The position numbers and the translations under genes are program-made. Below are positions 7,300-9,748 of a DNA stretch of 64,000 bases, in pieces (within the stretch, counting starts at the first letter, position 1; each line of letters begins with the position of its first letter). Location of the stretch: assembly GCA_963848965.1 (NCBI GenBank), contig CAWKFG010000001.1, positions 512,001 to 576,000 of the forward strand, read 5' to 3'. The notes under the pieces are model-generated. The model saw nothing but the letters and a program-made list of their open reading frames with translations, did no database searches and was not told the DNA's origin. This DNA is from an uncultured bacterium. Its GTDB lineage: Bacteria; Babelota; Babeliae; Babelales; Babelaceae.

Positions 7300-7518
7300 C
7301 TGCTCTGTAAAATGTCCTTTTGTTAAAGCTTCTTTTGCTAATTCAAGCACTTCAAAACAGGGTGATAACGAAAATGTTATAATAAATAGCTTAATTTCTT
7401 ATCTTGTAAAAACTATAGTGCGTTTGATGATTAATTTCTTTTTGTTACCATAATAGTATTACTTAACTACTTTTAGTAAAAGAGGCAAAGCCCCTTTTTG
7501 GCAGCCAAGAGGATATTT

Positions 7519-8706
7519 ATGAAACTAAGCGTAATGCTATTACTGTTAATTGTTACTTTTTCTTATGCTATACAAGCTACTTTAAGCAATGGTAGTTTAC
7601 TTATAAAAGGACAGAAAAAAGTTCTTTTGCTCGGCGATAGACATCCTTTGCCAGATCCTTTTATAACTGCATCTGATCACGTTGAAATTATAAAGCTTGA
7701 TATGGCTCATTCAACAGTGCTTCTTGATTGGGTTAAAAAAATAGCATTATCTATATCTGCTTGTATGCTTGTAGAAGCAAGTAAACATCGACCAGAAACA
7801 ATTGATGTAGAAATGCTTGAGAAGGCTCCATTTATTCCTCTTGGGCTTTTGTTTCCGTATATGGCAAAGATAGCTAACTATCATTTAAATAAATTATCAT
7901 TTGTATATGCAGATATACGAACAGACCCTATGAGTGATTGTGTCAGATTTGTACATGATTTAATTACTAGTTCGACACAGGATACTATAAGCTTTCAAGC
8001 AATTAAACACAGGTACTTACATGAAAGAAGATTTACTATTACAGCAGAGGAATTCTATAATCATCTTGAAAATCAGGTAAAGATGTTTGTCAAGGCAGAG
8101 GATATGCAACCATTGCTTGATAAACTACTAATAGAACTTGAGCGGGGTAAAAAGCTTTTAGGTTCTTTGAATCAAACGGAGCCTTTAATTGAAGCTCTTT
8201 ATAAAGAAACTTGTTGTGCAGAAACTTCTGTACCAGGTATAAATATGCCATGTTCTATTTGGATTAATTGTTTTGATGGATTATTTGCGAGCGTTAGCTT
8301 TATTAATGAACTTATCTTAGCGTTGCAGCGTGTTGATACTTGTATTGTTATTGCAGGAAGCCAACATATAATCGATCTGCATTCTTTTCTGCTTGATCAG
8401 AGATTTCATGAGCAAAAAAGTTTTGGGAATTTTCATTCGTTGCGAGATTTAGCTCAAAATAGTGATTATAAAGCTGTAAATAGTTTAAATCGAGCATCCC
8501 TTAAATCCTTAACTTCTGGTGAATTATTGGCTCATTTTTTACAGGATGTAGAATCTTTTCTTTTGGCTCAAGAGGTAGTTAAAAGTTGTGCTATATGCAG
8601 TAAAGAAAGCACTAAGTATTGTAGTACATGCAAAAAAATATATTACTGCTCAGCCGAGTGTCAAAAAAAACACTGGCCAGAACATAAAAAAGTATGCAAA
8701 AAATGA
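7519..8706 (+). CDS. Exported protein with C-terminal MYND zinc finger
   Basis: Signal peptide MKLSVMLLLLIVTFSYAIQA; CAIC..CSTC..YYCSAECQKKHWPEHKKVC. Confidence 0.8.
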   Translation: MKLSVMLLLLIVTFSYAIQATLSNGSLLIKGQKKVLLLGDRHPLPDPFITASDHVEIIKLDMAHSTVLLDWVKKIALSISACMLVEASKHRPETIDVEMLEKAPFIPLGLLFPYMAKIANYHLNKLSFVYADIRTDPMSDCVRFVHDLITSSTQDTISFQAIKHRYLHERRFTITAEEFYNHLENQVKMFVKAEDMQPLLDKLLIELERGKKLLGSLNQTEPLIEALYKETCCAETSVPGINMPCSIWINCFDGLFASVSFINELILALQRVDTCIVIAGSQHIIDLHSFLLDQRFHEQKSFGNFHSLRDLAQNSDYKAVNSLNRASLKSLTSGELLAHFLQDVESFLLAQEVVKSCAICSKESTKYCSTCKKIYYCSAECQKKHWPEHKKVCKK

Positions 8707-8707
8707 A

Positions 8708-8932
8708 ATGATTAAACTTCTTTTAAAAGCAGGAGCTGATGCACGGTCTAACGGTGGTCAAAGTACTTTATCAGGAACAGTATGCATGTAATAAGGGTAT
8801 AAAAATGCTTCTTGAAAAAGAGCTGATCCAAAAGTACCAAATGCATTTATAACCCAACATCTCTTAAGATCTGCTGATGGTTCAGTTGATCAAAGATTAG
8901 TAGAGCTTCTTAAAGAATATGGTGCAAACTAA
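8708..8932 (+). pseudogene. Decayed ankyrin-repeat gene fragment
   Basis: MIKLLLKAGADARS then a stop; MLLEK, frameshift, ADPKVPN...LVELLKEYGAN*. Confidence 0.6.
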
Positions 8933-9030
8933 CACTTACGAGAGAAAGTGCTCAGAAAGCCAACAAGTTTACTGGTTCTTATGAATGATCGTCACTGGTC
9001 GCAGAAGCTCTCGTTTCTGCTATACTACTT

Positions 9031-9162
9031 AATAATAAAGAGTTGGATGTCGACTCTTAGGCTAGGCAGTGTAAGACTAACCTTATTAGCGACTGCTGCT
9101 TGAATCCAAAAATAGCGATTTATCGCCATCCCTATGACTTTAGTCATAAGGGAGTATGCCAA
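9031..9162 (+). mobile_element. Orphan IS200/IS605(IS1341)-like tnpB 3' end / right end (omegaRNA-like), no tnpB ORF
   Basis: Stems AAGAGTTG/CGACTCTT, GGCAGT-GTAAGA..ACTGCT and TCCCTATGACT-TT-AGTCATAAGGGA, followed by GTATGCCAA. Resembles tnpB right ends as recalled; no search run. Confidence 0.6.
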
Positions 9163-9188
9163 TTACGATAAAAAGAAGAGAGCATGTA

Positions 9189-9617
9189 TTATGCGCGCTC
9201 TCTTCTACATCTTCTACAAAAATCCCATAAAGCATATTTACCAGGACCGCCTACAATAATAGCAAGAGCAGAAATTATAAGACTAAGCGGATATTCAAAT
9301 CCCTTATTTTGAGAAAAAAAGCCATGTTTCCAATGAATAAGCGTAACTGCTCCTATCATAACAGGAATAACAAGCAATGCTCCCACTTCTGCTGCTACGC
9401 CAAGTAAAAGAAGTATTCCGCCAGTAAGCTCAGAAAATGCAGCTAAATAAGCAAGCCATTCAGGTACACCGTATTTAGCAATCCATGTTACAAAACCTTC
9501 AAGACCGGTACCACCAAAGAGACCTAAAACTTTTTGGCCACCATGAGCAATAAAAATGATACCGAGTGCTACTCGTATGATAAACAGCGCCCATTGTGCT
9601 CTTTCATTACTCGTCAT
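9189..9617 (-). CDS. DoxX family membrane protein
   Basis: RVALGIIFIAHGGQKVLG, ELTGGILLLLG, GFEYPL, GPGKYALWD. Confidence 0.9.
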   Translation of the reverse strand: MTSNERAQWALFIIRVALGIIFIAHGGQKVLGLFGGTGLEGFVTWIAKYGVPEWLAYLAAFSELTGGILLLLGVAAEVGALLVIPVMIGAVTLIHWKHGFFSQNKGFEYPLSLIISALAIIVGGPGKYALWDFCRRCRRERA

Positions 9618-9748
9618 ATGCATCTCCTCTGTTAAGAAATTTTACCATCACCGTTAGTCTAAGAAGTGCTTTGATGAAAATGCAAGAAAGTTATAAAGAT
9701 CATTTTGAAGTTTCTACCAGATTTTGTACGCTAGACATGGAGGTCATT

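Follow-up and report, generated by a model that had tools for sequence, protein, structure and literature searches.

Genomic setting of the element

A short element occupies positions 8936-9162 of the window (the whole 64,000-nt stretch of DNA analysed), spanning 227 bp with its leading TTAC and 223 bp after it. It consists, in this order, of a left end, the last ~80 nt of a tnpB gene, and a right end (Table 1), and its G+C content is 41% as against 37% for the genome. On this architecture, the element is best read as an internally deleted, protein-less derivative of an IS608-like member of the IS200/IS605 group, of the PATE-like kind. The assembly that carries it comprises 1.73 Mb in five contigs and is 88.7% complete; the genome is AT-rich and encodes many eukaryote-like proteins.

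The gene downstream, which had been taken for doxX on the minus strand in a sequence-only reading of the locus, was confirmed as such by Pfam. Upstream, an ORF with a MYND finger (7498-8706; PF01753, E 7e-12) is followed at 8696-8932 (+) by a stretch that in one frame resembles, by eye, an ankyrin-repeat protein tail (…LLLKAGAD…, and …LVELLKEYGAN before a stop) and is interrupted by three in-frame stops, and which is probably a pseudogene; Pfam found nothing in the 67-aa ORF of this region. Three runs of soil-metagenome DNA contained one identical 192-nt contig, which lies at 8733-8924 and thus outside the element; neither an empty site nor a variant was seen in them.

The only ORF of the element has 51 codons (8948-9103, +) and is chimeric, since it runs from the left end across the putative deletion junction into the tnpB tail with its natural stop; it probably arose by chance when the two parts were joined. 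No match to 8935-9190 was found in plasmid and phage collections by distant blastn, and blastn against the element's own genome gave no second copy of the scaffold part.

Table 1. Positions of the element's parts, the adjoining gene and the tnpB loci of the same genome (window positions unless a contig is named)
Feature	Position	Strand	Basis or remark
TTAC, transposon-adjacent motif (target site), directly 5' of left end	8936..8939	+	homology, related left ends
Left-end remnant	8940..8987	+	aligns to left ends of full tnpA-tnpB elements L044, L048
Inner left end up to putative deletion junction	8988..9026	+	conserved with C1:388.8k/C3 copy and G003
OmegaRNA scaffold (last ~80 nt of tnpB + right end)	9027..9162	+	covariance model R1
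Insertion, 17-18 nt, private to window copy, small hairpin GCGA/TCGC	9111..9127	+	alignment against relatives
Right-end hairpin and terminal GTATGCCAA	9129..9162	+	transposon boundary after 9162
Flank that would serve as guide (TTACGATAAAAAGAAGAGAG)	9163..9182	+	directly after right end
doxX	9189..9623	-	PF07681 DoxX, E 7.5e-20; element just beyond doxX terminator
Resident tnpB loci	C4:637.7-638.9k, C4:514.7-515.8k, C4:332.3-333.3k, C4:613.8-615.0k		
Resident tnpB fragments	C1:415.3k, C4:82.6k, C4:753.8k		

The omegaRNA scaffold

A collection of viral contigs was scanned for the hairpin-plus-tail motif of the locus, which gave 28 loci. Eleven of these have an ORF of 322-410 aa whose end coincides with the motif and which, by tblastn, matches TnpB loci in the genome of the window; five of the 11 ORFs contain the OrfB_IS605 and Cas12f1-like TNB domains of Pfam. 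The tails of these ORFs read ...GAS(S/T)(L/I)GLG.V... and are followed by the hairpin CCCACGACTTTAGTCGTGGG and AGTATGTCAA. In genome contigs, a narrow pattern (stop-codon context plus hairpin) gave no locus and a broader one gave 21 more, whose hosts are Chloroflexota, Succinivibrionaceae, Clostridiales, Fibrobacter, Bacillota, Phascolarctobacterium, Anoxychlamydiales, Prevotella, and Selenomonadaceae.

Eleven sequences of tnpB tail plus right end, all from other organisms and the window not among them, served to build an alignment (A1) and a covariance model (R1). The adjoining ORF is confirmed as TnpB by Pfam at five of these loci (L047, L048, L032, L034, and L044), and is a 379-399-aa frame with a TnpB-like tail by eye at three (L074, L066, and L071); two more (L036 and L058) are protein-less themselves, and the last (L064) is cut by a contig end. 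RNAalifold predicted 25 pairs on A1, 13 of them with compensatory changes. R1 matches the window at 9027-9162 over its full length (model positions 1-117 of 117; 55.4 bits, E 2.5e-8), and nothing else in the 1.73-Mb assembly reaches E<=1. Because the model represents tnpB 3' ends independently of the window, the likeness of the scaffold to a tnpB end is beyond chance. The sequence-only reading had pointed to such a likeness and is borne out in this respect, both by the R1 match and by the GAS..GLG..V.. tails, hairpins, and terminal strings found at tnpB ends elsewhere. Rfam gave no family at the gathering score in the whole window and, within 8800-9400, three chance-level matches only (E 1.3-7.3).

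The tnpB tail in the scaffold reads ...SWMSTLRLGSVRLTLLATAA and stops with TGA at 9101-9103, and both tail and stop are placed as in L047 and L036. The features listed in the sequence-only reading are all in place, namely TGCTATACT at 9018-9026, the nested stems, and GTATGCCAA ending at 9162 with TTACGATAAAAAGAAGAGAG after it. Among the stems, AAGAGTTG/CGACTCTT lies at 9038-9058, and the outer stem GGCAGT/ACTGCT (9065-9070/9092-9097) encloses CTAA/TTAG. The RNA of 9030-9182 is predicted to fold with -38.8 kcal/mol (z -2.69), and 4 of 200 shuffled sequences fold as well.

Across all 19 R1 matches, 96.5% of the cells are paired and 18 of the 25 pairs have changed on both sides, values that none of 500 shuffles reached, although both figures are biased upward, as the alignment of the 19 matches was fitted to the model. 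In the window, every one of the 25 model pairs is a standard pair, and none of the 18 columns that do not vary among the other 18 rows has changed; the scaffold of G003, a genome of the same family, has fewer (23 of 25 pairs). The window nevertheless has the second-lowest R1 score (18th of 19) and is a divergent member by score rank. Ten of the 19 matches adjoin an ORF of at least 373 aa with a TnpB-like tail (five by Pfam, L030 by tblastn, the rest by eye), one is cut by a contig end, and eight, the window included, are without an intact tnpB; gene-less scaffolds are therefore common in the R1 family.

The left end and its -10-like box

The DNA 5' of the scaffold is homologous to the left end of complete elements. 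In L048 and L044, the left end comprises TTAC, ~20 nt, AGAAAG, a hairpin as at the right end, and ATGAAT, and is followed by tnpA (Y1, PF01797, E about 1e-40) and tnpB. The left end of the window, which reads TTAC-GAGAGAAAGTGCTC-AGAAAG-CCAACAAGTTTACTGGTT-CTT-ATGAATG, can be aligned with both column for column: ~20 nt lead to AGAAAG (8954-8959), the hairpin AACAAG-TTTA-CTGGTT (8962-8977), and ATGAATG (8981-8987), and the remnant was recovered by an nhmmer profile with an E value of 1.9e-25. TTAC stands before each of the 12 related left ends compared (5 + 7) and also before L036, L058, and the copy in G133 (a genome of the same order); the homology of the window with a second copy in its own genome begins exactly at TTAC 8936. 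The DNA-guide tetranucleotide AAAG is kept (8956-8959). The hairpin, however, is degenerate, with five of six pairs.

Further inward, the window and G003 have AGAAAGCCAACAAGTTT in common (17/17), and the inner left end contains GCAGAAGCT (9001-9009) and the -10-like box. In the alignment, G003 carries TGATAAAAT where the window has this box, so that TGnTAnAnT boxes coincide in the two genomes, and the position is also shared with the copy on contig C3 of the window's own genome. The sequence-only reading had regarded the box as the extended -10 of a lone right end. It turned out instead to lie at the inner edge of the element's left end (8936-9026), where the tnpB tail is joined on (about 9022-9030), and a scan with the sigma-70 consensus called no plus-strand promoter at 9018-9026 (three sites in the region versus 3.3 expected). 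Since L048 has a TTGACA...TATACT pair (by eye) upstream of tnpA in the corresponding part of its left end, it is plausible that the box derives from a left-end promoter.

The right end, the insertion and the CCAA terminus

In the relatives that were fetched, TTAC stands before the left end, AAAG (left) and GAAT (right) lie 5' of the hairpin feet, and TCAA terminates the element 10 nt after the right hairpin, an arrangement which we take to be that of IS608 of Helicobacter pylori. The window shares TTAC, AAAG, and the right hairpin with IS608-type elements and differs from them in that tnpA and tnpB are missing, the right tetranucleotide is split, the terminus reads CCAA, and the left hairpin has diverged. 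The palindromes at both of its ends are homologous to those of full tnpA-tnpB elements.

The right-end hairpin TCCCTATGAC-TTTA-GTCATAAGGGA (9129-9153) has a TTTA loop and one bulged A. Directly before it, the insertion at 9111-9127, whose GCGA/TCGC hairpin lies at 9115-9126, splits the tetranucleotide that precedes the hairpin in relatives and displaces it from the hairpin foot. This insertion is absent from all 11 sequences of R1 and from all 18 other R1 matches, those of G003 and G133 included. The tetranucleotide is GAAT in relatives, AAAT in G003, and AAA...AT, interrupted by the insertion, in the window.

With regard to the terminus, TCAA occurs at 20 of the 28 viral loci (the others have TCAG, TTAG, or TCAC) and at 21 of 21 genome loci, and CCAA is found in the window and G003 only, at none of the 49 other loci. 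The sequence-only reading had noted the change from TCAA to CCAA correctly and expected it to impair excision; the change is not a decay private to this copy, as the element in G003 also ends in GCCAA. The first base of the right-end tetranucleotide is altered in both carriers of CCAA. It was reported, in the section of PMC10055086 on this point, that the tetranucleotides pair and co-vary with the cleavage motif, for which reason the double change may represent a lineage variant rather than damage, and the two changes might compensate each other.

The strings at the two boundaries, TTACGAGAGAAAG (8936-8948) and TTACGATAAAAAG (9163-9175), agree at 11 of 13 positions. Target duplications are not made by IS200/IS605 elements, and this likeness may have arisen by chance in DNA rich in purines, reflect a TTAC-TTAC target, or be what is left of a neighbouring left end.

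Protein partners and related fragments in the same genome

As the sequence-only reading had stated, no tnpA or tnpB lies near the element: the TnpB domain PF07282 has eight matches at seven loci of the genome, none of them in the window and the nearest about 105 kb away, and Y1 TnpA (PF01797) has no match at E<=0.1 in the 88.7%-complete assembly, while it was detected in control genomes. Four of the tnpB loci have open frames of 373, 363, 326, and 414 aa, and the three further ones are truncated or frameshifted. All are non-autonomous, because the assembly holds no tnpA. Their 3' flanks are of three right-end types, each with its own hairpin and all other than that of the element. A cognate tnpB would be expected to bring its own R1-type tail, and since R1 has no second match, the assembly (88.7% complete) encodes no cognate TnpB for the scaffold.

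The left end has further copies in the genome. A copy 75% identical to window 8936-9036 occurs at C1:388760-388859 (-) and C3:7795-7894 (+). The flanks of these two placements are near-identical over ~1.1 kb (one differing base by eye), and contig C3 (9.5 kb) therefore duplicates part of C1. A third, shorter left-end-like relic lies at C4:758379-758435 and shows TTAC, AAGAAAAAGTGCATAGAAAG, and CCAATAAG… (nhmmer E 0.014). The genome thus contains one full copy and left-end-only relics at C1:388.8k (duplicated on C3) and C4:758.4k. The C1:388.8k/C3 copy was also considered as a second scaffold-bearing mini-element and rejected, as its homology to the window ends near 9036; the remainder aligns neither to the scaffold of the window nor convincingly to the type-A tnpB tail of the same genome.

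The flank, its possible targets and doxX

The sequence-only reading had left two options, a decayed scar or a stand-alone guide RNA acting in trans. The second would have the RNA start at the -10-like box, load a TnpB, or a TnpB-like repressor that is nuclease-dead, from another locus of the genome, and be directed to a match of 9163-9182. Its attraction lies in the fully paired scaffold with all invariant positions kept, in the TGnTAnAnT boxes aligned between the window and G003, and in the intact tnpB genes of other types in the genome; trans use of PATE-borne omegaRNAs has also been proposed in the relevant part of PMC10055086. The resident TnpBs, however, carry other scaffolds and other right-end sequences, R1 finds no other match at E<=1, and the TnpBs that go with the element's scaffold type have 26-39% identity to the best resident TnpB. 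The sequence-only reading had made its proposal depend on a TnpB-family gene in the genome; such genes do exist, but of those three other types.

In addition, the would-be guide is mere insertion flank. On the minus strand, 9163-9182 corresponds to the U-tract and the 3' arm of the terminator-like hairpin of doxX (-18.1 kcal/mol, z -3.07; then UUUUUAU). The search for guide matches beside the transposon-adjacent motif, which the sequence-only reading had proposed, found no TTAC-flanked target: among 90 sites in the own genome that match a 16-nt guide with <=3 mismatches, none is preceded by TTAC, and of 54 sites that match a 12-nt seed with <=1 mismatch, the single one with TTAC has 11 of 12 seed bases and diverges afterwards. 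The 17-nt insertion inside the scaffold also speaks against this option, as do the similar mini-elements of G003, where the only tnpB is a 133-aa fragment, and of G133, where no tnpB was matched. We therefore hold a guide RNA working in trans to be unlikely, and of the two original options the decayed scar fits best.

The position of the element also invites a host function that is independent of TnpB, either an antisense RNA directed into the terminator or 3' end of doxX or a product of the 51-codon ORF. Only geometry favours the former: a transcript begun at about 9030 would extend into doxX in the antisense direction, and the plus-strand hairpin at 9174-9206 has no U-tract after it. For the latter, no stop interrupts the frame between the left end and the end of the tnpB tail, but it is the fusion of a non-coding left end with that tail. 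The locus is not conserved with doxX, as the copies in relatives lie beside unrelated genes, and no promoter was called by the consensus scan. Such a function appears extremely unlikely.

Relatives in the order and elsewhere

A search with R1 in 151 genomes from the order, among them that of the window, gave matches at E<=0.01 in four: the own genome, G003 (66.1 bits), G133 (89.7 bits), and G062 (three short matches). The matches in G003 and G133 are protein-less mini-elements too. That of G133 (L080, C10:6965-7261) has TTAC, a left end, about 170 nt, the scaffold, and GTATGTCAA within 293 bp, and it lies downstream of an ORF that resembles tsaD by eye. The element of G003 (184 bp) reads TTGC at the TTAC position and is without the 17-nt insertion; common to it and the window are AGAAAGCCAACAAGTTT, the box GCAGAAGCT, the architecture of fused ends, and the GCCAA terminus, which is unusual. 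The sets of partner genes differ. G003 has no TnpA match and a single TnpB match, the fragment with a 133-aa open frame, and G133 has seven Y1 TnpA matches and none to TnpB (PF07282) in an assembly that is 90% complete in about 300 contigs.

A tblastn search with four neighbours of the element in the window found nothing at the G003 and G133 copies. With such unrelated neighbours, the three copies represent separate insertions or transfers rather than one inherited locus. Elsewhere, L036 (a viral contig) and L058 (a Chloroflexota MAG) likewise combine left end, scaffold, and right end without a gene.

The related mini-elements at non-syntenic sites indicate that elements of this type were mobile or transferred at some time, and they raise the prospect that the window copy is still mobile, as a non-autonomous element moved by TnpA in trans. 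Both ends, TTAC, and the AAAG guide position are present, and the TnpA matches of G133 would fit such a state. Against it stand the lack of a Y1 TnpA in the own assembly, the left hairpin (AACAAG/CTGGTT), which is unlike the right one whereas the two are near-identical in full-length elements, the displacement of the right-end guide tetranucleotide by the insertion, and the occurrence of the right end in one copy only, the two other loci of the genome (three placements) being left-end fragments. Present mobility is thus very unlikely.

Single-hairpin units of roughly 55-65 nt, with no tnpA or tnpB after them, were observed on seven viral contigs (L039, L055, L052, L037, L033, L041, and L043). 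They consist of TTAC, about 20 nt, AGAAAG, a hairpin, and the right-end tail AGTATGTCA(A/G), and they look like the terminal-only 52-bp PATE forms that are also described for Haloquadratum in the pertinent part of PMC3119063.

Comparison with known systems

PATEs (palindrome-associated transposable elements) are defined in PMC3119063, on examples from Haloquadratum walsbyi, by the lack of a transposase and by palindromes near the termini that are related to ends of the IS605 type. For PATE-like elements of Geobacillus stearothermophilus, PMC10055086 states that they 'often encode omegaRNAs', which need TnpB in trans. The element of the window agrees with these descriptions: its length leaves no room for a transposase gene, it lacks inverted terminal repeats and carries sub-terminal palindromes of IS605 type, and like the PATEs it shows a deleted core and fused termini that include the C-terminal coding part of tnpB and keep the omegaRNA scaffold (PMC3119063, PMC10055086, as far as the elements are characterized there). 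PATE-like elements are hence a kind already described, and the copy at 8936-9162 is one more example. It differs from the PATEs of these accounts, which are often multi-copy, in having a single copy with a right end in its genome, and it is peculiar in its degenerate left hairpin, its private 17-nt insertion, the CCAA terminus, and the lack of TnpA and cognate TnpB in the assembly.

The guide RNAs of TldR proteins (nuclease-dead TnpB-like repressors) adjoin the tldR gene. With them the element shares a TnpB-type scaffold outside an active transposon, in so far as they are described in the part of 10.1101/2023.11.30.569447 concerned, but it has no TnpB-family gene within about 105 kb, and no guide target was found. 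The omegaRNA (or reRNA) of TnpB, in the outline given by the same source, is a scaffold over the tnpB 3' end and right end with a guide of ~16 nt derived from the flank. The element corresponds to it in its position relative to the tnpB stop and right end and in its multi-stem scaffold with covariation, and the guide would be the flank after 9162; unlike the omegaRNAs of that outline, its RNA is putative, has no Rfam match, and lacks an adjoining or cognate nuclease gene.

Proposed origin and state of the element

The following history would account for the architecture. An ancestral tnpA-tnpB (or tnpB-only) element, or a ready-made mini-element, would have inserted 3' of TTAC just beyond the doxX terminator. 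In the former case, a deletion would have brought the left end up against the final ~80 nt of tnpB. Together with the right-end hairpin, these ~80 nt constitute the whole omegaRNA scaffold. If the system were functional, the single strand would be excised and inserted by TnpA via the two hairpins; this mechanism of IS608-type elements was reportedly described by Barabas et al. in 2008. TnpB, with an RNA composed of scaffold and flank, would then cut the emptied site (TTAC plus flank) and thereby restore the element.

Because the assembly holds no protein partner, the left hairpin is unlike the right, and the insertion splits the DNA-guide position of the right end, the element is most likely immobile and its RNA, if made, without a partner. 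We therefore favour, with a probability of about 0.8, the reading of 8936-9162 as an immobile PATE-like relic of an IS608-type element whose guide-RNA scaffold is structurally intact but partnerless. Against an idle relic, the scaffold shows no structural decay, as might equally be expected of an RNA under selection. The part that the assembly lacks (it is 88.7% complete) could hold a cognate tnpB or tnpA, and the intact TnpBs of other types in the genome might make use of the scaffold. An alternative to the relic is kept alive by the intact scaffold, by the -10-like box with its shared position, and by the incompleteness of the assembly.

A broader form of this alternative is that omegaRNA-only mini-elements persist without a cognate TnpB in the order, whose members have small genomes, and that the RNA of the window copy is under selection, either as a guide borrowed by a distant resident TnpB or as a TnpB-independent small RNA. 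The latter would start at a promoter in the fused left end and reach the doxX terminator in antisense. It is suggested by the fact that all 25 scaffold pairs stand in the window while the transposase-binding left end decays, and that three genomes (that of the window, G003, and G133) carry such elements. We regard this as decidedly unlikely and retain the relic as the preferred reading.

Significance

Taken on its own, the element matters little, as it adds a further case to the protein-less derivatives of IS200/IS605 in which a TnpB guide-RNA scaffold is retained. Its true boundaries guard against an annotation of the region as a regulatory RNA or a small ORF. Mini-elements of this kind recur in at least three genomes of the order with differing sets of partner genes, and the window copy, with an intact scaffold and no cognate nuclease in the assembly, offers a clean test case for the use of foreign scaffolds by non-cognate TnpBs. 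If its RNA were expressed and used, it would represent an exaptation of a guide RNA without its nuclease.
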